The notes under the pieces: model-generated | The model's input: the letters and a program-made list of their open reading frames with translations, nothing else | What the model was told of the DNA's origin: nothing | Databases searched by the model: none | Translations under genes and position numbers: made by a program | Assembly (NCBI GenBank): GCA_001599295.1 | Contig: BCGN01000006.1 | Span: forward strand, 186,001-250,000 | Reading direction: 5' to 3' | Source of the DNA: Sporopachydermia quercuum | Lineage: Eukaryota | Length of the DNA stretch: 64,000 bases | In this document: one piece after another, positions 1,140-34,221 of the stretch | How the letters are laid out: each line of letters opens with the position of its first letter | Position numbering within the stretch: the first letter of the stretch is position 1

Positions 1140-2219
1140 TGAGAAATACTTATGTCATAGGTATATATATATGAATGCTGGAGATAATAGAAAAAGTTAT
1201 AGGATCTGAAGTAGCTTGGAATAGATAGTGCTTTTGATGGGAATATGAACTATTAAATAAGAACATCAAGCAATGGTGAATAGGGACGTATGAATATTCA
1301 ATGTTTAATGTGAGTTTGTTGCTTGTATAGGTATAATGTGGACTCTTGTATTAGTCCTGTAACTAAGCCACCGAAGAGTATTGGTGGCGTTTACCTGTTT
1401 TAGAATTAAGTTATGAAATATGCATGATTTCTACAGACTTNATTTGAACCTCACTTAGACACACTAAAAGCAAAAGCTAACTATGCTACTCACTAAGTTG
1501 GTAAAAAATTGAGCTATTCACTTTCTCTTGTATGTTTATTCTCCAGTGGAAGTTGAATAGTTTGTGGACATAACATATAATAGACCATCATAGATAGCTT
1601 ACCACTCATGATAAAACTCACACATTTCAGTACTCATTCAGACCCTTTAAGTCATACTATCACAAGCATACTCAAACTCCCTCNCTCCTAATCTAGTATT
1701 TTCTCAACTCACCATCTTCATATCCATTCAATTAAACATATTTTCACTTTTCTGTCTTCTAAATAAGCAATCTTCTTAGCCTATAAATACCCCATTTTCA
1801 ACCTTCAAGTACTAATTTCTGCTTTATTGGAACTCTTTTTCCCTATTTCTTCTTATCTATGCTACCATTTCATTCAATATTCGCCAACCCTCAGTCCCTT
1901 ATAGACCCTACTATTCATATCCTTAGCCACAACCTTATTTTCATTTAGACCCTTAATCTTCCTCAAAAAGGGTCCCTCATATCTCACTTTCAACATGGAC
2001 AAGTCCTTATTGGTACCATCTCTCCATAATAATATGATCAGTTCTCTATCACATTTATCAAATCCTTCAATCAATCGACAGATCTCGATAATTTTGCATA
2101 ATAAATACCCTCCAAACTATCCACCAACATAAAAATTTTATCTTTTAAGGCTATAATTGCCAATAGATCATAGATAGATACATTTCTCATCAGCATTGCA
2201 TAAGAAATTGTGGCAGCCT

Positions 2220-2266
2220 ATGATCGGGCAATGACAGCCTGAGGAAGTAGTGGAATGATCATATAA
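2220..2266 (+). promoter_or_regulatory. Three short upstream ORFs ahead of MED12
   Basis: ATG ATC GGG CAA TGA (2220-2234), ATG ACA GCC TGA (2231-2242), ATG ATC ATA TAA (2255-2266). They matter only if transcription starts upstream of 2220. Confidence 0.5.
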
Positions 2267-2285
2267 CTAGGAGACAACACGTTTT

Positions 2286-5200
2286 ATGGCTTACAGATAT
2301 AGGGTTGATTCTGGGTCACATTCAAATGTGGCTCAGAAGATCCAAAAGTCTACAACTTCACCACCAAGTAATAATGCATCAAATCAGGGTTCGAATGTAG
2401 CTTCTACCACAAGAAGACCATTAAGACAATCATCGGTTTTAGATAGATTAGCTAGTAAAAGATATGTGGCGCAGCATCCGAACACAGTGTATCCTCTGGA
2501 AGGTGATTCTAAGCCTCAATTGAGTGGATCATCCTTATCTTCAACCCAGTCTGGTAATCAATCTGGTAACCAATCTTCCGCTAACAGTAAGACTTATCCC
2601 GATTTTCATCCATGGGCTCATTCACCAGCTGATGATAATATAGCAATAAGATGCTTAGATAAAGGATATTCTGAGCCACCTTTAGTGGAATCGGAGAACG
2701 TTTCCGCTAGGAACGTCATACATAAATTAGTACAAGATCGGAAGAGTTTATTAGGGTTTTCATCGGATTTAGTAACTGCATTGAAACTACGAGAAGAGCA
2801 CAATAAGATTACTGCACCCTCTACTTATAAGCCTCCACCGAGAGTAACACTAACGGATCAAAAAAGGGAAACGTGGCTTAGAGATTTGGCCAGCCCAAGT
2901 GTACCATTAAGGAAATTATCCCGAACAATTCCGCATGGAATCCGAAATAGGATATTACTTGAGCAATGCTGTAATAAGAACATCCCTATTTCGAGGGCAC
3001 TGTGGCTTGTACGGTGTGTGGGGTCAAACGAATTGCGGGGATTAAAACGAAAGGGAAATTACGGAACAGGCATAACCGAAAGTTCCTGGATTGGAAGTTG
3101 GACCGAGCAAGTTACTCTTTTTGTGGAAAAAGTCGCCTCGGAATGTTGCCAACACACAATGGGGAAATCATCGAACAATAATACAGTTACACTGGCTAAT
3201 GTGAAATCTCCTAGTGGAGCCGGTGTCACTGCAGCAACCCCCGAAGCGTCTTTATCTCCTTCCGCTAATGCCCCAAATACGGAAAATCTCGGAAACAAAA
3301 CGTGGAAAGAGAGAATGGATTATATAATGCGGCTATCTGTGGCTTTATATAATGAACAGCTAGTAAACAAGCGGATGTTCCTTGATTGGGTGCTAAATTA
3401 CATGAAATCTCGGCATTTGGAGCAACTTCCTCTTGGGTTATTATTTGTGGAGTTATTTTATACCGATATAACCCAACGAGATGATTTATCCCGAATTTTA
3501 GCCGAAGGACTGCTGAGCCACATCTCTCAAGTAAATAATATCAGCGGTGATAGCCTATATTCAGCCTTACATCAACAATTGGTACGAGCCACAATTCGGC
3601 TTTTTCATAATAACTGTGATGCATTTGTATTTCCTCATCATTGGGAAGAATTAGGTTCTGTCCTAGAATCGGTAGTGTTTGCTACTGATTCCGAGTTATT
3701 CCGAATGGTAAAACTTAGAAATGAGGCCTTATTAGTAGGGCACTCATCAAAAGGGGATCTTTTACCTAATTTGAACTCGGAAACATCTGGAAACCTTAAT
3801 TCCACGGAACCTTATTTACCTTATCCCCCAGAAAGCCACACAGTCTCCGCTTCTGTTCTCAAATTACTAGATAGAGCTTCAATTCCTTACGATTTGGACA
3901 GTATAGCGGCATCCCTAGTTGGGTTAAGAATGCCACTGCCACAACTGGTGCCTCTTTTACTAGAATGGGCAACTACTTCCTTCCGAGTCGGCATCTATCG
4001 GGTATATTTTGCTGCTTCTCTATTAGAAATATGGCAAGAGAAATATCCACAAACTGAATTCCAGAACATAGTTCTAGGCTTTCTGTTAAACATAAAATCG
4101 GAAGCCACATATAGTATGGAGAACATATACACTTTGGTTTCCGAACTTTGCTATAATAATGAGATACTGACTGTTTCCAGTTATATCCGAAGGGTTATCT
4201 CTTCCGGAATGATGTACGTTGAACGGATGAAGCCACAAGCTGAGTTTAATATTAAAATTGTGGCTAATTTTCCCGATGTGTTTTCCCGGGGAGCTCCAGA
4301 CATTTCTTTTATGATTTCCGCTTCTTCTAATACCGAGATATTCAATTTCAATCGTTTTAGAGATCTATCGGAAAAGATAGCGAAGGAGATTCTGGAAAAG
4401 ATACAAATCGGAAATTATAATTGGGAAATTTCGGAGACTATACAACTACAGTCACTGAATAGAAATTTCCGCTTGGAACTTTCAATCTGGCTGTTTAGGA
4501 AACTTCACAAGTATTTCAAAACTACTGGAAACATGCTTAATAAAGATCTTGCCGCATTGGTGTTGCAGATTTACCTTGTTCTCAATGACTATCGAGGCCT
4601 CCTCCAGTTCATACTACTAAGTATAAAGAAGGCTAAAGATCTGAAGGTGATTGGAATGATTTCTGATGTCTTCTGGACATATATTGATATATTCTCAGCA
4701 TGTGCTGATATCAGCTTGTTTATTGAAAAGTTAGTTCAGCAGATATTCGAGATTACCGGAAGAGTTATTACTACTGTTGATTTTCCCTGGCGAGGATTAT
4801 GTAATCTTTTATCCTTTGCAAAATTAATGCTACCTGATCTCCAAACGGAAGTTGTCTCGGCTCTTCAATTGCTATCGGAAGGAACAGTGACACAGGATTA
4901 CTATATTAAATTTCTTGGATCAGAAACGGCATCAGTTTCGGCTTCAGGAATTGCGGGTTCGATCACCCCTTTAACTCAATTGCAAAGCTTCAACAAAGCA
5001 ATAGAGCATGTCACTCAGCTCTACGCCGTGCAGTCTCATAACCTATCTATTCCGAACTCTTCGGACTCTACCAGAGGAGAATTAGCCGAATTACTCCGAA
5101 ATTTCGCCCTTGCCGTAATCGAAATCCAATCAGTTGATCGAAAAAGATTCACCTCTATATTGCTAAAATGGATAAGTGACTCTGCTGATACCAAAATCGC

Positions 5201-7139
5201 TCTGAACTATCATCTATTCCATGATATTCTGTTATTCTTATGCTTATACCAATGTCTGGATCTTCATACCATTGGAATGGAATTTCTCAGGCAAGAACAA
5301 CAAGCCGAAGATGTCTCTAGTTCGATTTTACCTACTACCTGGAGATTACAGCATAAACTTATGCTTGAACTATTATTTGGTGATATAAGCAATAGACTAC
5401 AATTAACCGTTCAAGAGGAATTCATAAAGCAGATGATAGTAAATGAATTACGGAGAAACGAACATGAGCTTGTTTTAACGTTTATAATGAGAGGAGTATT
5501 CGATTTGACTGTACGATGCGGAAATGATATCCATGATGTGAATAGCGGAAACAATCAGATAGAAGGTCTAATGTTAAGTGAACCATTAAATAATGATATT
5601 TCACCATTTGCAGGAATTCTGGAAGAGATAGACTCATATTTTTTATGCTCTATTGCCTCTTTTCCTAGAACTTTATCGGAAAAGTTCGGATCGGAATTAC
5701 TTCGGAAACGGAATTCTCCGGAGTCGATAGAAATTCTAGAAATAATGACTAGCAATATTCTATTTCAAAATAAGGATAAATTTATCAAATCAAGCAACGA
5801 TTTTTCCGCTATTGCTGAAGTCGCAACACCTGTTAATATGTTACTATGTCAATTGGTTTTATGCTTAGAAACTGTTAGAACAGAATCAATAACAAACTGC
5901 AATAACAATAGCAATAGTGGCAGTGCCACGAACAATCCTGATATCAATTCTGTTATTAATATCGCAGAAGAACATATGAATGCATCAGCACCCTCTTCTC
6001 CTTCTACCATTAATACAAAAGCTGTCATCAAATGCTTGCAGTTGGCAGATTATGTTCCAGCAGAAAGACTAGGAGAACTATTCCTATGTTTAGAACCTGG
6101 GAAGAAATCGGATCTTCAAGAAACAATTGCTATTTATGTTCTACAAGGAGAAGAGTTTCCTCGGGTTTATACAGAACGAGGAAATAGAAACAATTCCGAA
6201 GTCTCGGAACACATGAACCCTAATTTCCAGAGTGAACCTAAAAATAGACTCTCCTATCTCCGGAAGCTTCTAGATTTCCTTACCGATGGAGCTCAGAAAC
6301 AGCCGAGCCGTGAATTCATTTCCGCCTTTTCATCAGGCCTGAAAAAACTAATTCTTCAGTCGGGTAAATTAACGAGCAACAATAAGGAGTCAGCCAAAGG
6401 TAACAATACTAGCAACAATACCAATAGCAATAATAACGGTACTACGAATAATTCTNCATCTTCGTCTGTACAACAAGCGAAACAAGTTAATGCTAAAGCA
6501 TTGAGAAACGCTATTGTTTTCGTTGTCAAGCTTTTCATGATCTATCAGAAATCTTTCATTGCAGGATGCGAAATGCAAGTGTTTGATTTATTGGTTGAAT
6601 TATATCAAACGCAGTTTGTTCAACATAGCTTGGAACTGAAAGGAATTCTTGGTGACCTTGCAGGATTAGTTGTTTCTGATATACGAAATGATGTTGAGGG
6701 TATTAATACCAGAAACACTGCTACCACGAATACGACATCTATCATCAACACAACTAATGACAATAACAATAACAATAACAATAACAATAATGAGCTTATT
6801 TGTTGTAAATTAGAAGAAATACTGAAGAAACCAAAGAATCGGATGATCGCTAACGATAGTTTCAATTCTGCCTTTCTTCATGATTATTACTATGATTCTA
6901 CTTCCAACAATTTTTCTTTCGACCAAAATACTTATAATGAAATGCAATCGAGGTATTGGGAAGAAGAGACTAAGCTGAATGATTTGATGTTATTTGATCA
7001 ATCAACAGGAGATTACTATAAACTGAACATTCAGCCATTTGATCTATTAGAAGAAAGTAATCCAGTAATTGGAATTAACGATGCAGTATTAGATTTACAG
7101 CTATTCAATACTATCATAGAAAAAATGAATCCTAAATAG
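2286..7139 (+). CDS. SRB8: Mediator kinase-module subunit Med12 (Srb8)
   Basis: 1617 aa. N-terminal Med12 domain: YPDFHPW...YKPPPRVTLTDQKRETWLRDLASPSVPLRKLSRTIPHGIRNRILLEQC...RALWLVRCVG. Confidence 0.93.
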   Translation: MAYRYRVDSGSHSNVAQKIQKSTTSPPSNNASNQGSNVASTTRRPLRQSSVLDRLASKRYVAQHPNTVYPLEGDSKPQLSGSSLSSTQSGNQSGNQSSANSKTYPDFHPWAHSPADDNIAIRCLDKGYSEPPLVESENVSARNVIHKLVQDRKSLLGFSSDLVTALKLREEHNKITAPSTYKPPPRVTLTDQKRETWLRDLASPSVPLRKLSRTIPHGIRNRILLEQCCNKNIPISRALWLVRCVGSNELRGLKRKGNYGTGITESSWIGSWTEQVTLFVEKVASECCQHTMGKSSNNNTVTLANVKSPSGAGVTAATPEASLSPSANAPNTENLGNKTWKERMDYIMRLSVALYNEQLVNKRMFLDWVLNYMKSRHLEQLPLGLLFVELFYTDITQRDDLSRILAEGLLSHISQVNNISGDSLYSALHQQLVRATIRLFHNNCDAFVFPHHWEELGSVLESVVFATDSELFRMVKLRNEALLVGHSSKGDLLPNLNSETSGNLNSTEPYLPYPPESHTVSASVLKLLDRASIPYDLDSIAASLVGLRMPLPQLVPLLLEWATTSFRVGIYRVYFAASLLEIWQEKYPQTEFQNIVLGFLLNIKSEATYSMENIYTLVSELCYNNEILTVSSYIRRVISSGMMYVERMKPQAEFNIKIVANFPDVFSRGAPDISFMISASSNTEIFNFNRFRDLSEKIAKEILEKIQIGNYNWEISETIQLQSLNRNFRLELSIWLFRKLHKYFKTTGNMLNKDLAALVLQIYLVLNDYRGLLQFILLSIKKAKDLKVIGMISDVFWTYIDIFSACADISLFIEKLVQQIFEITGRVITTVDFPWRGLCNLLSFAKLMLPDLQTEVVSALQLLSEGTVTQDYYIKFLGSETASVSASGIAGSITPLTQLQSFNKAIEHVTQLYAVQSHNLSIPNSSDSTRGELAELLRNFALAVIEIQSVDRKRFTSILLKWISDSADTKIALNYHLFHDILLFLCLYQCLDLHTIGMEFLRQEQQAEDVSSSILPTTWRLQHKLMLELLFGDISNRLQLTVQEEFIKQMIVNELRRNEHELVLTFIMRGVFDLTVRCGNDIHDVNSGNNQIEGLMLSEPLNNDISPFAGILEEIDSYFLCSIASFPRTLSEKFGSELLRKRNSPESIEILEIMTSNILFQNKDKFIKSSNDFSAIAEVATPVNMLLCQLVLCLETVRTESITNCNNNSNSGSATNNPDINSVINIAEEHMNASAPSSPSTINTKAVIKCLQLADYVPAERLGELFLCLEPGKKSDLQETIAIYVLQGEEFPRVYTERGNRNNSEVSEHMNPNFQSEPKNRLSYLRKLLDFLTDGAQKQPSREFISAFSSGLKKLILQSGKLTSNNKESAKGNNTSNNTNSNNNGTTNNSXSSSVQQAKQVNAKALRNAIVFVVKLFMIYQKSFIAGCEMQVFDLLVELYQTQFVQHSLELKGILGDLAGLVVSDIRNDVEGINTRNTATTNTTSIINTTNDNNNNNNNNNNELICCKLEEILKKPKNRMIANDSFNSAFLHDYYYDSTSNNFSFDQNTYNEMQSRYWEEETKLNDLMLFDQSTGDYYKLNIQPFDLLEESNPVIGINDAVLDLQLFNTIIEKMNPK
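6759..6791 (+). repeat. AAC/AAT trinucleotide tract encoding poly-Asn in MED12
   Basis: gacaataacaataacaataacaataacaataat. Confidence 0.8.
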
Positions 7140-8423
7140 AAATATAGTAGATAGTTGGACGAATATGATGCTAGATATTATACTATGTTATGTTATGCTG
7201 AATTATACCTATAGTATAAACCAAATCCAGCAAAGAGTTCTCCAGAGGTTTGCAACCACGATCAACTGCCTGTTGCCTTACCAGCAGCAATTACAAGTAT
7301 GAACATCTAATCATATTGTGATAACTTATAAATTCACTATATAGTAAGTGCATGTCATTATGTATAATATATATTGTAGATGTAGATGCCAGACGTCACA
7401 CATATCACNTCTTATGAAGTAAAACTATAATATTACTATTCAATCCCAGCAAGTGTATTTTGTTCTATTAACAAAAGCTAGTTGCCCTGGTATAGGAATC
7501 AGCGATAGAACAGGTCATTAGTGATTAGAAGGCTTATTAATGAGGAATCCTACCACTGATATCTCATCTCAACATTTTACCTGCTATATGACCATGAATT
7601 AGCGAATTGTATCAACTATTATATTTCGCCATCATTAAAACGCATCAACAAATTACTACATCTGCAAATACTGTAATTAACCTACAAAATGTATCATAAA
7701 TACGGAACTAATAACAAATGCCATACCACACCATATCTGTCTGTTATAATGTTCTTCATTTACAATATCAAAAAATAAAGCCTTACAACCAAACTAAATA
7801 TAGCTATTGCATTTGATGTAAGGCTTATTAATAATGGATCCTATGACTATTGCTCCTATCACTATTGCATTTGACGTTGATGTAGATATTGATGTTGATG
7901 TTGAATGTATACATATTAAAATAGCACATACTATCATATGGTACGAAACAACATATAATATAGCTGTAATAAATAGATTCACAGCTTGCAATACACGTTC
8001 ATCCTTCCACTATTCTTATCAGGTACTAACGAAAGCATTTGATATATTTTCGTTAATACTGCCGGAAATGACATTTAGCAGAGGTTATAACGGGGTTTAC
8101 ATATCATTATTGAACATACTATCTCCGGCTCCTCCTTCTTTTCTTCTTCTCCCTATATGTTTGAGATTATCTTCAAATAAATTGAATGATTATTAATGTT
8201 GAATAGTTTCCATTCTGTCGGGTGACAAGATTCAGGGTGTTCTAGTACCGAAATTTAATGAGGGAAATATGCTACTACAGTAACGTGTAGTTGAATATCA
8301 TTTTTAAAAGCATTGTCCAGTATCTTCTCCGTTGATTTTCCGGCATGGTCTCCATCATTTGCTTCTCAATTTCTCCTATATTCTTCCCAATCCTTACTTA
8401 TTCCGCTATCTCGCTCTTTTTCA

Positions 8424-10103
8424 CTATAACCGCGTAATATCTATAGTGGTCTCACAATCAGACCCTCGATGTATGTAATTGCTTCCCATCAGCTCCACCA
8501 TTGCATTGCTACAAGCCTTACGAACCCTGGCCTCATCATCATCTGTTCCTGACATAGTAATTTTCATGCATCCCATGCACAGATCAGGATGAATTTGAAA
8601 AAAAGCAGCATGATCAACTGATATAACAGAATGATCGTTTGATACCGAGGATTTGATCAAACTGAGATTATCAACTCCTCCAAATGATAATAATAACATG
8701 GATGCAAGATGTCGCAATAAAGACCAACCTAGCTTAGCCATTAGGAGAGCAACAAACAATGAAATCCAATGATCAACGTTCTTTTGAGCTTCTATTGGTA
8801 AGATAGGATAAAATGTAAGAGTCAAAGCTAATCCTATTGTAAGTAAGTGAGCAGGGTTGCGGATTCTGAACCCTTGTTCTGGAGCTTTCTGTAGACGAGC
8901 TGCTGCCATAGTAATAAGTACCGTAGAGCAAAGAAGAGCTTCATGGGTTAAAACTGGCAGACTTTCGTATTCATTATAACTATGAGTATGGCTGTGGCTC
9001 ACCTCCTGATCATTTTCATACTCAGTGTGTTCATAGGTTGCTCCTGAGTAGTATACAGACTCGACTATGCTTTCAAATGAATGAGATACTAGATCACCAG
9101 CTAAAAAGACAAAAGAAACAGACAGAGCAAATCCAACTAACACAGCTACACGCTCTAGACCAAAAGGATGTCTAATACTGCTTTGACGCCAAGCATCAAA
9201 GTTCCCTAAGACTTGAACCATTATATGTACAGTTAGGCCAACCGAGTCATAGAATACAAGATGAGCCAGAGTCCCGAGAGCAGCTGAGCCACCAGAATGA
9301 CTATATAGGAAAAGGGCGAACCCTAGTAGGATGTGTATTATGCAAAATAGAAGTTTGTTGCGTTGTGGCGCAGTAATGCTATGCAGAGTCTCAGTCACAG
9401 TCGGAATAGGTAGTGATGCAGGTATAGCTAATGGGGCTCGTACTGGTGGTTCCTGAAAGAAATTCATTGACACAGAACTGTGTTTATACCGGTGACCTTT
9501 CCGATGGCTCGGCTTCGCTTGGCTGCTTGGTCTCGCTGTCATCGAAACAGAAGAAAAGTTAAACGGTTTACTCAAATTAGGCGATGATGGAACCACTTGT
9601 GGCATAATAGAGCTATTGGAACTGCTAGTTGAGCCTCCTGAGCCTCTTCTCGGGGATGCGGATCGAATTGGTGATTGTGAGCGATGTGGCGGAGGTGGCA
9701 TAAAGCTCCTTTGAGTGAAAGACCCCGCATTGCTCGGTGATGATGACCTAGAGGAGATATATGACGAAGCCGGAGATTCTGGTCTTGGTGGAGCATTCAA
9801 GACTATTGACGGTATATTGTTTCCTTGTTGGAAAATGTGTAATCGGGAAGGATTAGGTGATTGAGGAATTGGTATTGAGTTCACTGTTGTTGATGTTCCA
9901 ATATAACTTCTAGGCCTTCCATTTGGTAATGCAACTGGGAATACTCCATCGCCACGAGGAGTTTTAAAGGGAGAACAACTTCTTTCTCTCCGATAATCTG
10001 TGAATGAAAATTCGCTCAAGGGTGTTCTTCCTCTTGATAAACGTTCGGGTGTTTCATACTTTTTTTCAGCTTCTTCTTCTATCAGGTCATTTAATGAATC
10101 CAT
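8424..10103 (-). CDS. ZRG17: ER zinc transporter subunit Zrg17 (CDF-like)
   Basis: Signature RKGHRYKHSSVSMNFFQEP...LPIP, PPPP.RS.SP.R, a Ser/Pro-rich N-terminus, then several hydrophobic segments including SSIRHPFGLER. Confidence 0.9.
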   Translation of the reverse strand: MDSLNDLIEEEAEKKYETPERLSRGRTPLSEFSFTDYRRERSCSPFKTPRGDGVFPVALPNGRPRSYIGTSTTVNSIPIPQSPNPSRLHIFQQGNNIPSIVLNAPPRPESPASSYISSRSSSPSNAGSFTQRSFMPPPPHRSQSPIRSASPRRGSGGSTSSSNSSIMPQVVPSSPNLSKPFNFSSVSMTARPSSQAKPSHRKGHRYKHSSVSMNFFQEPPVRAPLAIPASLPIPTVTETLHSITAPQRNKLLFCIIHILLGFALFLYSHSGGSAALGTLAHLVFYDSVGLTVHIMVQVLGNFDAWRQSSIRHPFGLERVAVLVGFALSVSFVFLAGDLVSHSFESIVESVYYSGATYEHTEYENDQEVSHSHTHSYNEYESLPVLTHEALLCSTVLITMAAARLQKAPEQGFRIRNPAHLLTIGLALTLTFYPILPIEAQKNVDHWISLFVALLMAKLGWSLLRHLASMLLLSFGGVDNLSLIKSSVSNDHSVISVDHAAFFQIHPDLCMGCMKITMSGTDDDEARVRKACSNAMVELMGSNYIHRGSDCETTIDITRL

Positions 10104-16964: not shown

Positions 16965-17676
16965 TATACAGATAATAATATAAGCTTCATTTTTAGTAAT
17001 ACAAAATATTTCATTTCTTTCTATTTCAATTGCTTCTTGATACTTATGTTAAACAAGTGAAGATATTGAGTGTATTGGATTCAGGACAATACGCATAGTA
17101 AGCATTGTAACATCTAGTCGTTAGAAGTACAACAGGTAGCTGTTGTCTTAGGTATCTCTAGGCCTACCACTTTCATTTTCAAATTACTTAATTCCATTAA
17201 ATGATAATTTCAAGCAAAAATCCAATTAATTGCTTTTATTTCTCCTTGCTTTAGCCTCTTCTGCTTGTTATTTCTTTATACCATTTTCATCTTTCTTCCT
17301 ATTATCGTCACCAATTATATAATCAAATAATAACTTCAAATCTTATACGATGTCCAATAACAGGCTCTTTTCCCTCCTGCCCCATCGTTATCGGCATAAT
17401 TACCGTTTTCATACTTCTGTGTTTAACTCTTTATCGCTCTGCATTTTATAGGTCTTGTATCACATTCCTTTTGTACGTCCCACATTATATATATTAAGTT
17501 GTCTTTCCATTGATTATTTCCGGTGTTTGGCAGACAGAATATCAATAGATTTTCTCTGGGAGGTAGTTGTGATTACCCTCATAATGAAAGAAATATCCGT
17601 GGGGTAGATATCCGGTTTTGCTTTTGGTTTCTAGCTACAGCTCATCTCATCTCATCTGCTTCAATTCCTCATTCCA

Positions 17677-20625
17677 ATGTCTCGTGAGCATTCTCCATCA
17701 AGGGCGAACTTGGGCGTAGATAGTGCTGGCCTTACAGAAAGAGAGGGAACATCAAGTAACGAATCAACACCATTGATCGAAAATAATAGTAAGAAATGTG
17801 AAAAGAACAGTGAGGAAGATACCAGAAACTGGTATCAAAGATTTTGGAGGAAATCCAGAAATGATGTCGATGAAGAAACAGGGGGTAGCTCTGTTTATGA
17901 AAGTACAAGCAACAGATCTGATCTTATTTCTCCATCGATTCCTAGTGAGACTAATTTGCAGCTAGATAGACAGAGTATAGCTTCTTCTGCAGAATCAGGA
18001 CATAATCATGCACCTCCAGTTACTTTCTGGAGTGTGGCTTATAACATTATTGACGAATTTATATGCCAGTGCCGTTGGAAGGGTCTATGTGCTATTATTG
18101 TCCTGATTGTACTGTTTGTTGGTTATCTTAATTATGGTAAATTATTTAATTCTGCAGTCCAATACCTGGTAACTAATAATGTAGAGGTCAGTGTTGATAG
18201 TATAGCTATTGGATCTTTCATTGATAACGGGTGGATACCAGTCGTGATAATTGGGTCCCTCGTTCCCAAGTATAACAACTACTTATTTGCAAAACTAATG
18301 AACGGATGTGGTAATGCTGAAGTGATATTTCCCAGCGATGTTTTGAACGTTTTTGTGACAGATGAAAATGAGAGAAATTATCATACTTTAAGCTTTTCTT
18401 CCATTGAACCAATAGCAATTGATTTACATGATTCAACTAGAACGCTCTTCAACTTATCAATGAATGTTTTACCTAAACATGGTATGTTCAAGTGTATTCA
18501 ATCAGCTTTAGAGCAAACCATCAACGACCCTAAAGCAGTGTATCCTTTAGATATTACATCAGATTTAACATTGACTGGGAAGGTTAGTCTTAAATTGAAG
18601 AGCTATACGCTAGGAACCTTTGACCTAAACGTAAAACATGTTTTTACTGCTGTGATCAACGATTTCTCCAACTACGTGAATACGACTATGGAGCTTGTTT
18701 ATATTGGAGAAAAGGATCATGGTGTAGTGTTCGCGGAAAGAGTAGTTNTTGACTGGAGCGAACTTGCAATATCGGCTGTAATTCCTGAAATAAATTGGAA
18801 TGGCCTTACTGTTGGCTGTGATAANTCTAAAAACTCATTATCTAAGTTATTCTCAGTTTCATCTTCACCCGTTGAGATTAACTATTATGATAGGAGCCTC
18901 GTAGTGGAAACTGAGGTGCTGATCTCTTCAATTCCCACTGCAATCACTACCCCATGTGAAAATGATCTCAGCATTCTAGATCTAATAGCTCGGGCAGTAT
19001 TAACTAATTGTCTAGATACGTTATCAGAGCTCATATATATAACAGGGTCAAGTAATCAATCTAATAAGACTTTTCCAGCGTGGTTGAATCAAGGGTTGCA
19101 ATCAATTATTATACGTCTGCCTTTAGAAAGAGCCTATCTGTCAAAGTGGACTGATTCTTTTGATCTTCAAAAGTATATTTCTATTACTCGTCTAGAAGAC
19201 ATCAGTATCAACGCTCCTTATAAGCACCAACCTTTTACAAATACCTTGTCTTCTTCTGCATCTCCTGACACTGGAACGAATAGTATGAGCGACCAATTAC
19301 TTGTTGATACTACATTTGATATTCAAATCATATATCCTAACCCTGAAAAGATTGATCTCAAATTCGAACTCTCTGAAGTGAAAGGTTCAATAGAATTGGA
19401 ATATTTTAATCACACTATCACACAGATAACTTTGGATGAATGGAAACCTATTCATATGCTGATATCACCTTCTAATAAAAAATATACAGTAAATATCACC
19501 GAGGAACTAGTCTCTCTATTTAATGGTGGATATATCAGTCAAGTAATCGAATCAATAGCCAATAATGAGTCACTTGCTTTCACTATTAACTGCCGCCTAG
19601 ATACTAAGGTCAAATTACCATTTGGTGATGTTGAATTGCATAAGCTTGGTACAAGCGTCAACTATGAGTTGCCTCCAACAAGCCTCNACTTCAACGATTT
19701 GTTTGATCAAGCAAAATTGAATATTTCCGATATATTACTGTTAAACTCTTCAAACAAAACCTTGGAAGTATCAGCAGATGTAAGTCTGAATACCCCAGGT
19801 TATGGAAGGGTTGATTTTCCATATTTCAGTGCGTATATCTGCTATGAAGAAGCAATTATCGGTAGAATTGATCTGATTGACTTCGTTCTTGGTGGCGTTT
19901 TGAGAAGTACCATGATCCCAAGGTTAACAATTGGCCCTGTTTCAAGCCAAGATGAGGATTATTTTGAGTTCGACAAGCTACAAGAGTTTATGGGGAGAGT
20001 CATTTCAGAAGTAGAGGTGAATTTTACAGTTGTGGGCTATGAGAACAGTATTCCCTACATGCCTCAATTATCTAGTGTCTTGAAAGACATTTCTATACCT
20101 TTGAAAATACCGGAGTTTGATTTAGGTAACGATGATAATAGTGATGATGATAATAATGGCGATAGTGAGAGTGATTATTATAGTGATGCTAATGATGATG
20201 ATAATGACATCTCTGTTTCTTGCAATATTTTCCAGTTAACAACCCTGGAACAACGGCCAAAAGGTTTATTTATAAAAGAAGCAACAATGCACTTAATGAA
20301 GTCAAATGTAGATTTCTTAGTTTATAATCCGATTGTAAACTGTGCAATAAACGCAACAATTCTCGAAGCCAATGCCAAATATAAAGATAAACAATTGGGT
20401 TATATCACAGGCTCTACTGCTCTAACAATAGAGCCAGGTTACTATCAAACACCGAGAATACCAATCACATATTCCAAAGGAATCGGTTATGATATATTGA
20501 GGAAGGCTTTGAATGGTGAACTGGAAGTAAATGGTTTAGCATTGATAAAAGTGGAGATCTACGAGTGGAAAGCTGTTATTATGTATCAAGGAAGTGGAAT
20601 TCATGCAAAAGTACAACTGATGTAG
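17677..20625 (+). CDS. Tag1 (YLR173W)-like type II membrane protein, probably vacuolar
   Basis: ESTPLI sorting-like motif, a single TM helix (LCAIIVLIVLFVGYL), a large beta-rich N-glycosylation-rich lumenal part, and C-terminus FIKEATMHL...VYNP...PGYYQTPRIPI..GIGYDILRKAL. Family assignment is from memory. Confidence 0.65.
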   Translation: MSREHSPSRANLGVDSAGLTEREGTSSNESTPLIENNSKKCEKNSEEDTRNWYQRFWRKSRNDVDEETGGSSVYESTSNRSDLISPSIPSETNLQLDRQSIASSAESGHNHAPPVTFWSVAYNIIDEFICQCRWKGLCAIIVLIVLFVGYLNYGKLFNSAVQYLVTNNVEVSVDSIAIGSFIDNGWIPVVIIGSLVPKYNNYLFAKLMNGCGNAEVIFPSDVLNVFVTDENERNYHTLSFSSIEPIAIDLHDSTRTLFNLSMNVLPKHGMFKCIQSALEQTINDPKAVYPLDITSDLTLTGKVSLKLKSYTLGTFDLNVKHVFTAVINDFSNYVNTTMELVYIGEKDHGVVFAERVVXDWSELAISAVIPEINWNGLTVGCDXSKNSLSKLFSVSSSPVEINYYDRSLVVETEVLISSIPTAITTPCENDLSILDLIARAVLTNCLDTLSELIYITGSSNQSNKTFPAWLNQGLQSIIIRLPLERAYLSKWTDSFDLQKYISITRLEDISINAPYKHQPFTNTLSSSASPDTGTNSMSDQLLVDTTFDIQIIYPNPEKIDLKFELSEVKGSIELEYFNHTITQITLDEWKPIHMLISPSNKKYTVNITEELVSLFNGGYISQVIESIANNESLAFTINCRLDTKVKLPFGDVELHKLGTSVNYELPPTSLXFNDLFDQAKLNISDILLLNSSNKTLEVSADVSLNTPGYGRVDFPYFSAYICYEEAIIGRIDLIDFVLGGVLRSTMIPRLTIGPVSSQDEDYFEFDKLQEFMGRVISEVEVNFTVVGYENSIPYMPQLSSVLKDISIPLKIPEFDLGNDDNSDDDNNGDSESDYYSDANDDDNDISVSCNIFQLTTLEQRPKGLFIKEATMHLMKSNVDFLVYNPIVNCAINATILEANAKYKDKQLGYITGSTALTIEPGYYQTPRIPITYSKGIGYDILRKALNGELEVNGLALIKVEIYEWKAVIMYQGSGIHAKVQLM

Positions 20626-21536
20626 ATAATCTTCTATCTATTGTCAATGATATATGTATTCTCGTCCGAACGTTATTAGGAAGTTGTTGATCTGAACTAA
20701 ATTGTGATTCAGCTATTGGGTCAACAGGAACAGTGCTTCGCATGAGAATTGTGATATTCTCGAGGCAACAATAGTTTATTTACTGTGTTTCGTGTTAAGG
20801 TCGCTTACGTTTCTATCGTTTGGTGTTGGGTAAGTTTTCTAGATGTTATTACTTGTTATTGCCAATTATGCTCATCTGAATGTGTCCTTTATCTGCATAC
20901 TAGTCATGGGTAGAATTTGATGTTCTATTGCTCACGTAATCATTAATCAGAGAGATTTGAATTATATCACGTAATCTTGTTTTCCTATATTAAAACGGTC
21001 GGCTATCAATAATTGCAAGAACTTCTTGAATAGGAAACTATCGCTTATCATTTGGAACTATAATCAATTAATTAAGAGAAAAAGTGCTTGGAATGCTTGG
21101 TATTGTTAATAACAGTAGAAACGTTTTAGGGTCCTGCATCAAATCCAGTGGTTAATTAAGTACAAGTGCCTAGTAAAGGTCTGACACGATGTTCTGGTAA
21201 ATTCAGCAGTTATAATCTGAGTATAAATACCTGTGAAAGGCTTATCCTGGATAACTGACCATCATATTGATCGTCCTGATTTGTATGTGGTACTTGATAA
21301 AATTGTTTTCTGGGTTATAAACTGAATCGTAGCCAACGATCCTAGACATCATACTATCAGTTTGTTTATCAGTCACACAACTTCTCAGGTTTAGTTCACC
21401 AGAATTCAATTTCAAGTTTTAATTCGATTGCTATTATTATCATTTCCGCGGTTCAATACTTCATTAGGGGTGTCTCTTCAGAAGTTCTTCCATTTCTTCG
21501 CATTTTCATCTGCAGCAAATCATCACCAAATACAAA

Positions 21537-25847: not shown

Positions 25848-26759
25848 TTAACCAGGGGGTAATTGAGAAGCATCGACAATATCTGCTTCACTCTTTGATG
25901 GCTCATTATTCTTTTCGCCTTCTACAAGTTGGGCTCTTGGTAAAGCCATCATACCAGATCTAGCAACTTCCAAAATACCAAAAGGTTGAATCAAAGCTAA
26001 GAAAGATGTAACTCTGCTCGGCTTCGCCGATAATTCAACTACACAGTTTCTATCGGAAATATCCACAACTTTACCTCCAAATTGATTAACCAAATTGGTG
26101 ATAGACTGTAAGTGTTGATATCTATGACGCAAAGCCTCACTAGGAGCTAAGTTATTAGGGTGGTTAGCCTTTTTACTTGCTTCACTCGGACCAGTTGAAC
26201 CAGATGTAGCATTATAGTGGTGATGAATTAAATCTTCAAAATATTCGGGACCTAGCAAAGAAACTCTGGCCAGTAAAAGTTCACGCTTGATGATATCAGT
26301 GTTAGTGTAGTTCAACACAGCCCAAACAGGAATCAAATCTTCAACTTGTCGTCTAGCTTGCTCAACAACACCATCTTGACCACGAAGAACAATAGTCATA
26401 CGGGATAAATTCTTTACTTCGGTATTGCAAACAACCAGAGAATCAATATTGAAACCTCTGGCAGCTAAAATTCCTGCAACGCGGGACAAAACACCTGGTT
26501 CGTTTTGAACAAGACACATCAAGACATGATCATTGGGTTTAGCTGCTTGCTCTTCTGGTGCGCTATACGTTTCATACAAAATCGACGAAACTGCTGAATC
26601 GGCAGACCATGTTGGTGTTTCTAATGTTGGTAATGGTGGTGGTGATTTGGATCTATGTAGAGATTTATAAGCAATAGCAGATGCTGAACTCGATTCAAAT
26701 CGAGCAAACACTCTGCTACTGCTTTTCACCAATTTGCTTCGAACTGTAGCGGCAAACAT
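25848..26759 (-). CDS. ILV6: Acetolactate synthase regulatory subunit
   Basis: ACT domain CLVQNEPGVLSRVAGILAARGFNIDSLVVCNTEV; C-terminus DASQLPPG. ATG at 26759. Confidence 0.96.
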   Translation of the reverse strand: MFAATVRSKLVKSSSRVFARFESSSASAIAYKSLHRSKSPPPLPTLETPTWSADSAVSSILYETYSAPEEQAAKPNDHVLMCLVQNEPGVLSRVAGILAARGFNIDSLVVCNTEVKNLSRMTIVLRGQDGVVEQARRQVEDLIPVWAVLNYTNTDIIKRELLLARVSLLGPEYFEDLIHHHYNATSGSTGPSEASKKANHPNNLAPSEALRHRYQHLQSITNLVNQFGGKVVDISDRNCVVELSAKPSRVTSFLALIQPFGILEVARSGMMALPRAQLVEGEKNNEPSKSEADIVDASQLPPG

Positions 26760-26955: not shown

Positions 26956-27324
26956 CAAATAAACTCACAGCCCATCTCGTTCAGGCTCCGGTATAGTCCG
27001 GAAGGAGACATGAAGCTTTTGGCGCCTCGAGTAACCCACTCTACGGTAAATATAAGCATGGGTAAATCATGTACCGTAATTAGTATGTGTGAAATCTTTA
27101 ACAATGAGATGAGACACGATGATGCTGAAATTCTAATACCACTATATTGCTTTAGTGAACTGTTTATTTGGGAGCCTTGAGAAAGTTTTAACAGCGGATG
27201 AAAACATGCGAGTATGAACTTGATCGAATTTGATACTAGAAATTAAGGAAGTCTTGTGATAAGAGAAGTTGCTTCTTGGAATCTGGCTTTGAGAAATTGA
27301 TTCCTTATAGTTGGAATTTTCACT

Positions 27325-28818
27325 ATGGACAGTCGACACTCTGAAAGGAGATCGAGAACCAGAAGCCAGAATAGGAGTAGAAGCCGCAGTGGAAGTAGAA
27401 GCCGAGATACAAGTGGTACTTCTGACAGTAGAGGCTACAGAGACCGGGGCGAGGATAACTGGGGATCAAGATCAAAGTCACCAAAGCAAGATGCAGACCC
27501 TGTAGCAGCAGCAGCAGAAATTGCTGCCAGAATTGCAGCTCAACTGCAGCAATCAGGAACCACAACGTCTCAGAACAATAGCTATGAAGCACAACAAAGT
27601 AATACCAATAGTAATTCTGGAAATGCTCCACGAACTACAGCTACAATTCTAAAATCATTTGCAGCAAATCCTGAGTCAGTTCATAGAAGTACTGATACCG
27701 GTCTAATTACAGCTGAAAGAGATATGTACATATTTGAAGGTGATTATCTACAGGACATTGAAGTAAACGACAACCCCAATAGGTACCTGTTGACAAAAGG
27801 ACCCACTCAGGTAAAAATTAAAGAGAAAACTGGTGCTGATGTTACAACTCGTGGTAAATATTATCCCGATAAACTGAAAGCTACCGAAAAAGAGCCTCCT
27901 TTATATCTTCATATTACTGCAAGTAGTGAAGAAATTTTGAAGAAAGCTGTTGAAATGATAAGAGATGTAATGAATGGCGAAGCAGAAAAATGGTTAGGTG
28001 ACGATTTGAAAAGTGACTGGGAAAAGGAGAAAGAAAAAGAGAGAGAAGTACGAGAAAAGGAAAGAGAACGAGAGTATCAAGAACGACAAAAGAGACGGGC
28101 CAGAAATAAGATAGAAATAGGATTAGAAACAGTTCCTGGATTCAACATCCGCAGTCATATTATTGGAAGAGGTGGTGCTAATATCAAACATATTATGTCA
28201 GTTTCTGGTTGCAGAATTCAAATAAAAGGTAGGGGTTCTCAATATGTTGATAAAGAATCAGGTTTAGAAGAAGATGTACCACCATATCTACACATATTCA
28301 ATGCAACTAATGAAGAACAGCTTGAAAAATGCAGAGAAATGTGCCTTGATTTGATTGGGGCAGTTAAAGAAGACTACGATAGGTTTATGAGCCACAACTC
28401 ACATCAACAAGGAAATAATTATCAACAAACTAGTCATAATGGATACAATGATCACAATGCATATAATAATCATAGCGATAATAGAGGTCCAGTTAATGCT
28501 GCTTTACCAGCGGGACCTAAAGGTATGATAGCAACGCCACCTGCTGGTCCAAGGTCATTAAGGTCTCCTGAGACCTATCACGATAGTCTTTCGAAGTCTC
28601 CACCACCAAGACCGTCTTTTCATTCAAACAATGTATCAAACGCGCTACCGCCAGCACCTAAAAGACCACCACAGCATGCCCACAACTCACAGTTGCCATC
28701 AGGCCCTCCTCCGCCAGGTCCACCTGGCCACTTTTCAAGACCACCACCTCCTCCACCTCCATCAGCACCAGCAAGAGCTCCACCAACAAGACCGCCTGGA
28801 TCAAGAACTTACTACTGA
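27325..28818 (+). CDS. KH-domain RNA-binding protein, KHDC4/BLOM7-like
   Basis: RS-rich N-terminus; DIEVND..NRYLLTKG.TQ..I...TGADVTTRGKYYPDK...PPLYLHIT; second KH IIGRGGANIKHI...IQIKGRGS; Pro-rich tail. Confidence 0.85.
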   Translation: MDSRHSERRSRTRSQNRSRSRSGSRSRDTSGTSDSRGYRDRGEDNWGSRSKSPKQDADPVAAAAEIAARIAAQLQQSGTTTSQNNSYEAQQSNTNSNSGNAPRTTATILKSFAANPESVHRSTDTGLITAERDMYIFEGDYLQDIEVNDNPNRYLLTKGPTQVKIKEKTGADVTTRGKYYPDKLKATEKEPPLYLHITASSEEILKKAVEMIRDVMNGEAEKWLGDDLKSDWEKEKEKEREVREKEREREYQERQKRRARNKIEIGLETVPGFNIRSHIIGRGGANIKHIMSVSGCRIQIKGRGSQYVDKESGLEEDVPPYLHIFNATNEEQLEKCREMCLDLIGAVKEDYDRFMSHNSHQQGNNYQQTSHNGYNDHNAYNNHSDNRGPVNAALPAGPKGMIATPPAGPRSLRSPETYHDSLSKSPPPRPSFHSNNVSNALPPAPKRPPQHAHNSQLPSGPPPPGPPGHFSRPPPPPPPSAPARAPPTRPPGSRTYY

Positions 28819-31824: not shown

Positions 31825-34221
31825 CTAAAAACCAGTCCATAAACTTGACATCTTTGGCCAAACTCTCTTATATAGAGCCATACCAACAGTGTCTTGTGAT
31901 GTAATTCTACCATCAAATGTAGCCTTGAAATAACCATGAGTGCCCAAACTTTCCTTAATGAACCCTGTTCTACCCATTTTGGTGAATAGTGGTACAGCTT
32001 TATACCACGCAATATCTTCAGGGTTAAAGAACATGTATCTGATAGTAACAAGTTTCTTATGAATTTTGAGAGGATGACCAGTGAGAACAACTCTTTTAGC
32101 AAGAATTCTTGAATAATCTGTGTTAAGTAAACTTCCCGTGCCAACAAAGTGTACAGCTCCAGGTTCTTTCCCAGGTTTGAAAAACAATGCGGGACAATCA
32201 CCAGAACTGAACATAACCGGAGATATAACTGTAGCAACACCTAATGTATCCTTATGTATGAATCTTTCATATTTATGAACATTATTAGGACTGTTGACCA
32301 TTTGAGAGTATAACGGCTGTACAATCTGTCGCCTGAATCCATATTGAACAATTAATGTATCCTTTGAAGGTACAGGTTCTTCATAGCCCTCCCACGGTTG
32401 CAAAGAAAAGTTGACCACTGCCAATCTATGTTCATACTCATGTAATCCATATAAAACGAATGGTATTGTCTCAATATTATTACTGCTTGCAACAATAAAT
32501 CGTGGGGCTTGAATCAAAATTCTAACCCTTGTTCCAGCTGACGCAGATTTACATAGCTTAGCAGTTTCTTTGATGACTCTATTCCTAGTAGCTTTATAAT
32601 TGCTGATTCTTAATAGCTTTCTCCATTCTTCAGGAGCTCTAGGATCTTGCTCATCATAATCCCAATCGCAATTATAGAGATTCTTAACCCCACGATATCT
32701 ATGAAGGCGTTCACGAACCTTTTCGTTAGGGCTCAATTCAATTTCATCTGGAAATTCTCTATCTTCTTTCTCTCTAGCTCTGAACTCTTCTAATTGTCTA
32801 GCCTCTTCTGCTTCATTCAAGTCAACAAACATTTCACTTTCCATATCACCACCTTCAGTTGCAGCATATGTTGATTGAGCATCCATTGACACATTGCCAT
32901 CATCCATCATAGCATCATCATNATTTTCGTTGATATCATCAGAGTTAAACCCATCTTCCTCTTCATCACTATCATAAATATGCCACCTCGCTTGGTACTC
33001 TGACATACCTTGCTTCATTCTATCTCTCATGAGATTAATATGCTTAGCTTTGTATTTATCGGTTAAATATGTATGTCCTTCTAATCTAACACCTTGTTCC
33101 TCATTACAATCTAGTTGTCCAAATGAAGCACTGTTGTTTTCTTCCATATCATCATAATCAGCTTCATCCATAGAATACTCTTCTTCTGCTAACTCATCAA
33201 GAGTCTCAGCATTCTCAGAAGGAGTACTTAACACAGATAGTTGGTCATTAGACATATCTTCATCTTTTATGCCATGCCTGGAAACAGACGATAATGAAGG
33301 TAATTGTTCAATTCTACTTATTTTATAGTCACCAAACCCAGGAATATGAACTAGCCGGTCAGCCGTAAAACCATTACCACGAACTATACCTTCAACTGCA
33401 ATGTTTTCATTATCATACTCAACAAGCTTATCAGCAACTAGATATCCTCTAGAATCTCTCCATGAAACACCCTTAGGAAGTTTCTGGCATAGATTTCTAG
33501 TAACTGTTAATGCTTCTGAAGCATTACTCAAGGCATATACTTTCTCCTCATTGGGAAAAAAATGATGGAAGAAACTAAACAAAGAGTTTCTTACGTCNGT
33601 CTGAAGTCTCAGTTTTCCAACCTCGTCCAGGTTCGGTATCACTCCAATTACATTTGATACACCTTGATTCTCAATTGCTCTAATCCATTGCTCACCCAAA
33701 GATTCGTCGACCTCCACTTGAGACGATAAACCAAGAACAACAAAATCTGCTACTTTAGCAGCATCTAAAATTGCAATAATACTTGTTAAATCTGGGACAA
33801 TAAACTTAACTCTTTGTTTGAATCTCTTGAGAATAGCACTCAAAACAAATGGTTGATTATCACCATATTCCAGAATTACTTCATCATTGTCACCTGCTTC
33901 TCTTCCTTGATTGATAAAAGTTTCCACTATATCTTTAGCGCTTAAGTCGTCAGTTAAAGGTATAACAGTGATTATTTTCTCTGCACCATTTAGACCTTGA
34001 AACAGTTTTCTTGCTGAATCATTATCAGCTATCTTCTTGAGTTTCAATTGCTTCGCTAAATTTTTTCTCTCTTGTTTATTTAAAACGTGNGCAACATTGT
34101 TACCTTTGGTGTTTTCAATTTTACCTTTNTTTTTGGCTTTTATTGCACTCTTTGATGAATGTCTTGATTTAAACGCTTTGTGCTTAGTTTTAAGCGTAGA
34201 GCGATGGCTATGTCCCGCCAT
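31825..34221 (-). CDS. TSR1: 40S pre-rRNA processing factor Tsr1
   Basis: MAGHSHRSTLK..HKAFKSRH, EFPDEIEL, RYRG, KRVVLTGHP, IKESLGTHGYFKATFDG. Confidence 0.96.
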   Translation of the reverse strand: MAGHSHRSTLKTKHKAFKSRHSSKSAIKAKXKGKIENTKGNNVXHVLNKQERKNLAKQLKLKKIADNDSARKLFQGLNGAEKIITVIPLTDDLSAKDIVETFINQGREAGDNDEVILEYGDNQPFVLSAILKRFKQRVKFIVPDLTSIIAILDAAKVADFVVLGLSSQVEVDESLGEQWIRAIENQGVSNVIGVIPNLDEVGKLRLQXDVRNSLFSFFHHFFPNEEKVYALSNASEALTVTRNLCQKLPKGVSWRDSRGYLVADKLVEYDNENIAVEGIVRGNGFTADRLVHIPGFGDYKISRIEQLPSLSSVSRHGIKDEDMSNDQLSVLSTPSENAETLDELAEEEYSMDEADYDDMEENNSASFGQLDCNEEQGVRLEGHTYLTDKYKAKHINLMRDRMKQGMSEYQARWHIYDSDEEEDGFNSDDINENXDDAMMDDGNVSMDAQSTYAATEGGDMESEMFVDLNEAEEARQLEEFRAREKEDREFPDEIELSPNEKVRERLHRYRGVKNLYNCDWDYDEQDPRAPEEWRKLLRISNYKATRNRVIKETAKLCKSASAGTRVRILIQAPRFIVASSNNIETIPFVLYGLHEYEHRLAVVNFSLQPWEGYEEPVPSKDTLIVQYGFRRQIVQPLYSQMVNSPNNVHKYERFIHKDTLGVATVISPVMFSSGDCPALFFKPGKEPGAVHFVGTGSLLNTDYSRILAKRVVLTGHPLKIHKKLVTIRYMFFNPEDIAWYKAVPLFTKMGRTGFIKESLGTHGYFKATFDGRITSQDTVGMALYKRVWPKMSSLWTGF

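Follow-up and report, generated by a model that had tools for sequence, protein, structure and literature searches.

CGG-dense coding sequence of MED12 in Sporopachydermia quercuum: a candidate array of zinc-cluster half-sites in synonymous positions

The DNA considered here is a 64,000-nt stretch of the Sporopachydermia quercuum assembly GCA_001599295.1 (contig BCGN01000006.1, positions 186,001 to 250,000; hereafter the window, in whose numbering all positions are given). It is nuclear DNA of a yeast-like kind, with about 36% GC, and near its start it carries a gene for the Mediator subunit MED12/Srb8 whose coding sequence is crowded with CGG and CCG triplets (Table 1). The closest relatives of the encoded protein are fungal MED12/Srb8, those of Trichomonascus, Magnusiomyces, Yarrowia and Nadsonia among them; in the databases no close relative was found, the best matches having 25-37% identity. 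Contigs from three runs in two studies, possibly of the source strain, match 1200-8400 throughout without a single difference and show no variants, joints or ends over that span; the MED12 sequence is not an accident of assembly. Isolated single N letters number 55 in the whole window, about one per 1.2 kb, and the 4.85-kb MED12 open reading frame (ORF) holds one of them, at position 6456, so that the protein has an X there; these Ns may be masked ambiguity codes or heterozygous sites.

Table 1. Coordinates of the MED12 gene and of the motifs described in the text. N7 stands for the seven nucleotides between the two triplets of a pair.
Feature	Position	Strand	Remark
MED12/Srb8 ORF	2286..7139	+	1617 aa; single open frame; Pfam Med12 PF09497, E 4e-30
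CGG/CCG-dense domain, core (T)CGGA(A)	~2434..6439	.	~2.4 triplets per 100 bp, from site list
CGG-N7-CGG direct repeat	2921..2933	-	CGGAATTGTTCGG
CGG-N7-CGG direct repeat	3280..3292	+	CGGAAAATCTCGG
CGG-N7-CGG direct repeat	3691..3703	-	CGGAATAACTCGG
CGG-N7-CGG direct repeat	3989..4001	+	CGGCATCTATCGG
CGG-N7-CGG direct repeat	5086..5098	-	CGGAGTAATTCGG
Densest cluster, 7 CGG/CCG in 48 bp	5675..5722	+	two CGG-N7-CGG pairs: 5677-5689, 5709-5721
(A)AGCCACA/TGTGGCT(T) copies	2328, 2674, 2873, 3002, 3339, 3516, 3587, 3834, 4103, 4231, 4260	both	

The excess was first noticed in a reading made from the letters alone (the sequence-only reading), whose hand count of about 95 triplets between 2690 and 6845 turns out to be exact (53 CGG and 42 CCG, 22.9/kb). 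Its two comparators were likewise right, at 5.0/kb for TSR1 (ORF 31825-34221) and 5.8/kb for a Tag1-like gene (ORF 17677-20625), and its transcript of the densest cluster agrees letter for letter. As background we used the remaining 17 ORFs of 200 aa or more in the window together with 1.04 Mb of DNA from other fungi. The whole MED12 ORF holds 99 CGG+CCG, or 20.4/kb, against 5.0-16.7/kb in the 17 other ORFs and a window mean of 8.6/kb. For the extended words CGGA+TCCG the figures are 11.5/kb in MED12 against 0.4-5.1/kb in the other ORFs, with 34 CGGA and 20 TCCG lying in 2690-6845.

Two null models, each keeping the protein and each run for 1000 simulations, were set against these counts: in null A the codons of MED12 itself were shuffled among synonymous positions, and in null B each codon was redrawn from the pooled usage of the 17 other ORFs. 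The 99 CGG+CCG compare with 41.8±6.4 under null B (z 9.0) and 77.2±5.8 under null A (z 3.8); CGGA+TCCG number 56 against 15.4 (z 10.3) and 32.0 (z 5.1), TCSGA 29 against 5.3 and 12.4 (z 5.6 for the latter), and CGGAA with its complement 37 against 6.7 and 15.3 (again for the latter, z 6.3). Taken over these four word counts, z runs from 9.0 to 11.8 under null B and from 3.8 to 6.3 under null A, and none of the 1000 simulations of either null reaches the observed values; the 17 control ORFs gave z of -2.5 to +0.9 in the same test. Places where a synonymous choice can form CGG or CCG are used in 99 of 380 cases in MED12 (26%) and in 212 of 2271 in the other ORFs (9.3%, range 5.9-19.1%). Total CG in MED12 shows no excess given its own codon usage (z -1.4), and the non-random feature of the gene is the context of CG rather than the number of CG. 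The anomaly in the sequence is robust and unusual.

An unbiased k-mer scan returned a single family, (T)CGGA(A), with TCGGAA/TTCCGA at 18 copies vs 5.6, CGGAAA at 15 vs 4.8, GCGGAA at 10 vs 2.8 and CGGAAG at 10 vs 2.5; GGAA with no preceding C was not enriched. Compared with CGG sites elsewhere in the window, those in MED12 more often have T at -1 (55% vs 33%), A at +3 (57% vs 32%) and A at +4 (55% vs 42%). The dense domain is confined to the gene body: bins of 250 bp contain 1-9 triplets within it and 0-2 in the flanks at 1251-2250 and 6501-8000, and even within the ORF the final ~700 bp contain hardly any of the words. No local runs of one strand were detected when CGG was set against CCG (runs test, P=0.18). 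A longer hidden repeat or transposon relic was considered and rejected, the words standing in unrelated contexts and no repeat family exceeding 40 nt. Further downstream, the convergent 3' region between MED12 and a cation-efflux ORF (8001-8500) has 12 CGG/CCG triplets and 15 CG, nearly every CG falling in a CGG or CCG; a branch-point-like word, TACTAAC, lies at ~8025, and one strand here may carry an exon or intron missing from the annotation. AT-rich words fall below the gene's own codon shuffle, namely AAAAA/TTTTT (15 vs 25.2), TTAAA/TTTAA (8 vs 18.5), ATAATA (8 vs 15.1) and GTATGT (0 vs 2.8). This depletion, as measured in MED12, could mean that a long gene avoids cryptic signals for termination, polyadenylation or splicing.

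Pairs of triplets at one particular spacing are over-represented. Direct CGG-N7-CGG pairs occur seven times in MED12 against 0.68 expected, and only 1 of 600 shuffles reaches seven at any distance between 3 and 60; the window as a whole has nine such sites against 1.78 in shuffles, seven of the nine being inside MED12. All seven fit the outline CGGA(A)...T(Y)CGG. Within 20 nt, pairs in the same orientation exceed expectation (18 vs 7.8 and 18 vs 5.0), inverted and everted pairs within that distance are at expectation (7 vs 6.3 and 9 vs 6.0, respectively), and spacings up to 20 nt other than the direct N7 are near expectation. Among other spacings, which we take to be those of Gal4, Put3, Ppr1, Hap1, Leu3 and Pdr1, MED12 has one CGG-N11-CCG and one inverted N6, and no N10, direct N6, everted N4 or N0. 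The motif CGGANNA, of the Rgt1 type, was also tried and dropped, A at +6 having a frequency of 32% against a background of 28%, which is no preference. Outside MED12 the N7 pattern is found only in a palindrome, CCGGACTATACCGG (26988-27001), once on each strand; the palindrome sits in the divergent promoter between an ILV6-like ORF (25848-26759, minus strand) and a BBP/KH ORF (27325-28818, plus strand).

The sequence-only reading had placed the triplets in several codon phases and on both strands, and they are found in all three phases on each strand (CGG 16/26/12, CCG 6/28/11). Four of the six classes are raised against null B, with z of 4.7-7.5: CGG codons (16 vs 3.1) and, with the hyphen marking the codon junction, NCG-G (26 vs 9.3), NCC-G (28 vs 12.3) and NNC-CG (11 vs 3.1); NNC-GG (12 vs 8.4) and CCG codons (6 vs 5.7) are not raised. 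In all, 77 of the 99 triplets cross codon junctions and 22 are in frame. The two orientations are similarly enriched, CGGA at 34 vs 8.0 and TCCG at 22 vs 7.3, CGGAA at 22 vs 4.0 and TTCCG at 15 vs 2.8. Since no reading frame and neither strand lacks the excess, something besides the protein code has shaped MED12. Nor does the amino-acid sequence provide for it: the protein offers 23.5 CGG-capable places per 100 aa, within the 12.8-28.8 of 15 orthologues, and with this ordinary capacity shaping by amino acids is ruled out and the excess sits in synonymous choices, again as had been proposed. Of 52 serines that precede a G-initial codon, for example, 29 are written TCC or TCG, compared with 19 of 160 elsewhere.

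Such a pattern might also be expected if MED12 were written in slow codons and codon pairs (CGG, CGA, TCG, or NCG followed by GAN), so that translation or mRNA stability would keep a sub-stoichiometric regulator scarce and the CGG excess would be a by-product. Of the 75 arginines of MED12, 33 are encoded by CGG or CGA (44%; CGG 16, CGA 17), against 55 of 427 (13%) in the other ORFs, the codons TCG, ACG and GGA are also up, the most strongly raised single class belongs to the sense frame (TCG-GAN, 13 vs 3.6 and 1.5), and there is a modest bias to the sense strand. GGA is preferred even where no CGG can form (29/53 vs 128/394), a general preference that is the exception among codons unable to make the motif. 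It is difficult to reconcile slow translation, however, with the predominance of triplets across codon junctions, with antisense TCCG, TTCCG and TCCGA enriched about as much as their sense counterparts, or with the direct N7 spacing, which would be meaningless for translation. Other rare CG codons are not up (CGC 1, CGT 2, CCG 6, GCG 6), CGC and CGT together having fallen to 3, and adjacent CGA-CGA pairs number 0. Usage is near normal outside the motif: the 358 motif-capable codons, defined as those of which some synonym could form CGG or CCG, deviate with a G statistic per degree of freedom of 3.82 (p 2e-13), against 1.71 at the 1199 other codons, a value inside the 0.8-2.6 of other ORFs in a related though not identical test. 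With the deviation concentrated at motif-capable codons, the codon choices are therefore directed at the motif and not at rare codons in general, and plain rare-codon use, one of the alternatives listed in the sequence-only reading, does not hold. We regard control of translation or mRNA stability as an unlikely origin of the pattern.

The trait is not shared with the other fungal MED12 loci analysed. From 80 such loci on metagenome contigs we took the 38 that offered 3 kb or more of gene and 4 kb or more of flank; obvious duplicates were removed by eye with some redundancy left, and all 38 are distant, at most ~30% identical over the full length. A CGG excess appears in 0 of the 38. Their gene/flank ratios of observed to expected counts (o/e) are 0.68-1.21 for CGG+CCG and 0.57-1.58 for CGGA+TCCG, against 2.37 and 4.79 for this MED12, and at the level of the ORF the ratio of used to available places is 1.09 in the closest locus (L001, 30% identity), 0.92 in L016 and 0.99 in L025. 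In 4-kb windows from the 66 loci of at least 4 kb (n=1515, 1.04 Mb) CGGA+TCCG o/e has its 99th percentile at 1.43, and the 4-kb peak of the present MED12 is 2.99, at 2501-6500. The sole higher value among the comparison windows, 2.79 at locus L075, is due to a low-count tail of 14-25% GC and was rejected as a parallel case. In that locus GC drops abruptly from ~50% to 14-25% at 17001-21521, 3' of the MED12 region, in what looks like a block degraded by repeat-induced point mutation or an AT-rich repeat block. With no excess at 38 other loci the trait is lineage-specific, so that a tie to MED12 as a gene does not hold across these loci; relative to these distant comparators, a CGG-laden MED12 is a rare, lineage-specific trait. 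A search of the literature at the level of titles and abstracts found no description of an MED12/SRB8 coding sequence dense in CGG.

A second word is enriched in MED12. (A)AGCCACA/TGTGGCT(T) has 11 copies (6 on the plus and 5 on the minus strand, in all phases) against ~2.0 under both nulls (z 6.8), and 12 in the other 59 kb of the window; for comparison, the top 6-mers of the control ORFs have 3-6 copies against 0.2-1.6 expected. A CGG or CCG lies within 20 nt of 10 of the 11 copies, which is not significant at this density of CGG. Near the 5' end of MED12 there is also an inverted pair of CTGAGCCACA(T), at 2324-2343 and 2664-2683 (20 nt, 90% complementary, 320 nt apart), and the CTGAGCCACA word has a third copy at 3510-3523.

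Lineage-specificity and the unrelated AGCCACA would both suit a neutral history, in which a past local episode of context-specific mutation, of gene conversion from a diverged copy or of partial foreign replacement left words of no function. The uniform, Poisson-like spread of the triplets (variance-to-mean ratio 0.91 over 4 kb) would suit it too, as would a domain that seems to stop inside the ORF, the last 232 codons having 1 triplet against 6.1 expected from the codon usage of the core (P=0.017) and the first 50 codons 0 against 2.5 (P=0.09). Composition gives little sign of such an episode: GC content at third codon positions (GC3) is 0.336 in MED12, within the 0.255-0.370 of its neighbours, the amino-acid composition is unshifted, and the non-coding flanks are untouched. 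The other GC-rich words are flat or depleted (the CGC/GCG ratio is 1.1, and CGT is down to 3.4/kb from 6.0/kb in the window) and supply no donor signature; because they are not raised, a foreign or GC-biased origin fits poorly. A foreign or introgressed compositional island was accordingly rejected, GC3 being within range, only CGG-family words and AGCCACA raised, and the flanks ordinary. Nor could the shifts from AGR to CGR, from TCW to TCS and from GGT to GGA come from any single base change; the pattern is strand-symmetric, unlike transcription-linked mutagenesis, and no known process produces CGG words. A neutral relic of this kind appears improbable to us, at roughly the standing of the translational explanation.

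The enrichment of a word together with its reverse complement on the sense strand brings RNA structure to mind, in that UCGGA with UCCGA and AGCCACA with UGUGGCU could pair on the same mRNA and fold it. The mean minimum free energy of 150-nt windows is -27.99 in MED12 against -26.63±0.45 in synonymous shuffles (z -3.0), the lowest z of seven ORFs, the six controls lying between -2.3 and +2.0. The gain in folding is only ~5%, however, and one of those controls comes close; the best local hairpin candidate, at 4205-4295 (AGCCACAA..TTGTGGCT, 4231-4265), has a z of -1.0, which is not significant; and it is the direct pairs of triplets that are enriched, while the inverted and everted pairs within 20 nt are at expectation. 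RNA folding seems a very improbable cause.

CGG is the canonical half-site of zinc-cluster (Zn2Cys6) factors. Synonymous choice that is directed at a motif, independently of frame and strand, points to a selected double-strand DNA word or else to a very odd mutational history. Our preferred reading, to which we give a probability of about one in three, is that synonymous positions in the body of MED12 may spell out an array of Zn2Cys6-type motifs in double-stranded DNA. It is ranked first because the word is that half-site and because the direct N7 pairs match the site type of the factors AcuK and AcuM; the probability beyond the four readings given here is left for other explanations. Under the preferred reading ~4 kb of the MED12 gene body would carry some 50-100 copies of the short word (T)CGGA(A), installed through the choice of synonymous codons and of neighbouring codons, so that the word is spelled in any frame and on either strand. 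The likeliest putative reader would be a DNA-binding protein that takes CGG half-sites as its target, a zinc-cluster factor, and its binding in the gene body may tune MED12 output, possibly as a roadblock to elongation or through condition-dependent internal or antisense initiation, e.g. upon a change of carbon source. A more specific version, that the gene body is a landing pad of ~50-100 half-sites, including AcuK/AcuM-type pairs, at which a zinc-cluster factor controls the availability of the Mediator kinase module by physiological state, via an elongation block or internal or antisense transcripts, is speculative and should be thought distinctly unlikely in that full form.

Several observations weigh against an array of this type. 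Only 14 of the 99 triplets belong to N7 pairs and 85 lie outside them, the spread over 4 kb does not form discrete modules, and CGGA exceeds TCCG (34 vs 22), the modest sense-strand bias mentioned above. The best helical periodicity, 10.1 bp with z 3.0, is matched by 13.8% of shuffles and is not significant. AGCCACA enrichment is unrelated to CGG and is not explained by a single factor. The absence of the feature from the 38 other loci leaves no conservation argument for function, and with 17 ORFs as its background the gene-specificity of the excess holds within the window. Hardly any CGG is present in the promoter region (1140-2285), the bins at 1251-2250 containing 2 triplets in 1 kb. In the interpretation offered by the sequence-only reading, an intragenic array of zinc-cluster binding sites, the synonymous placement and the independence of phase and strand stand and the N7 pairs, which that reading had not noticed, are Zn2Cys6-like, but the promoter of MED12 itself is CGG-poor.

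In the window MED12 is accompanied by ordinary housekeeping genes, including a PDK-like kinase, a cation-efflux protein, a Tag1-like protein, ILV6, BBP, TSR1, a DEAD-box helicase, PP2C, an aquaporin and GLE1, and no gluconeogenic gene is among the window genes. There are no tRNA genes within the 64 kb, and no overlapping or antisense ORF was found in MED12, where the longest alternative frame is 92 aa.

If a protein reads the words, MED12 would offer a clear example from nature of a core transcription-machinery gene with a dense regulatory array in its coding sequence, and zinc-cluster factors would be linked to control of the Mediator kinase module through the gene itself, besides through the protein complex. 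Were the landing pad real, the synonymous positions of a conserved housekeeping regulator would carry a second, DNA-level message. If the words are instead a mutational relic, an undescribed and highly context-specific process would have acted on a single gene. In either case, one gene can differ strongly from its neighbours at synonymous sites with no shift in GC3, and standard screens for codon bias or GC would miss such a case.

Two known kinds of system are touched by these observations, nucleotide motifs selected within coding sequence and arrays of zinc-cluster half-sites. With Zn2Cys6 (Gal4-type) sites the MED12 words share the CGG/CCG core, the T before and the A/A after it, and the enrichment of same-orientation pairs. 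The known sites are few and lie in promoters, with half-sites in direct, inverted or everted pairs, whereas here ~99 triplets, mostly single, lie in a coding region, the array at 2434-6439 being inside the ORF and not upstream of it. Leu3 and Rgt1 are reportedly the factors in a study of homologous-locus pairing in Saccharomyces. There, clustered zinc-cluster factor sites are reported to mediate inducible pairing of homologous loci (bioRxiv 10.1101/385047), and the likeness, if shared, would lie in a role for grouped sites at the level of chromatin instead of the promoter. Synonymous choices that spell a nucleotide word in any frame recall 'duons' and other non-translational selection on codon usage; such cases as described (PMC8410138, PMC3575835) are usually single sites or genome-wide avoidance, whereas here one gene has a 3-6-fold excess over 4 kb. 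The GC-rich origin motif of Pichia, for which PMC3945215 gives the core TYGAAC, was rejected as having no match to (T)CGGA(A). A further correspondence is with AcuK/AcuM of Aspergillus and Aod2/Aod5 of Neurospora, which according to the review PMC12719309 read direct CGG repeats 7 bp apart, and which correspond to Ert1/Rds2 in Saccharomyces. Their elements stand in ones or twos 5' of gluconeogenic, alternative-oxidase or flavohaemoglobin genes, whereas the MED12 sites are intragenic and are not placed upstream of genes for gluconeogenesis or alternative respiration. In sequence, the seven N7 sites of MED12 agree with the definition of the CCGN7CCG element (AIM in Neurospora) of this factor family (AcuK/AcuM, Ert1/Rds2, Aod5/Aod2, Zcf11/Cwt1), and the Neurospora site CGGACAAACTCGG, from Table 3 of that source (PMC12719309), has the same outline as CGGAATAACTCGG and CGGAAAATCTCGG of MED12.

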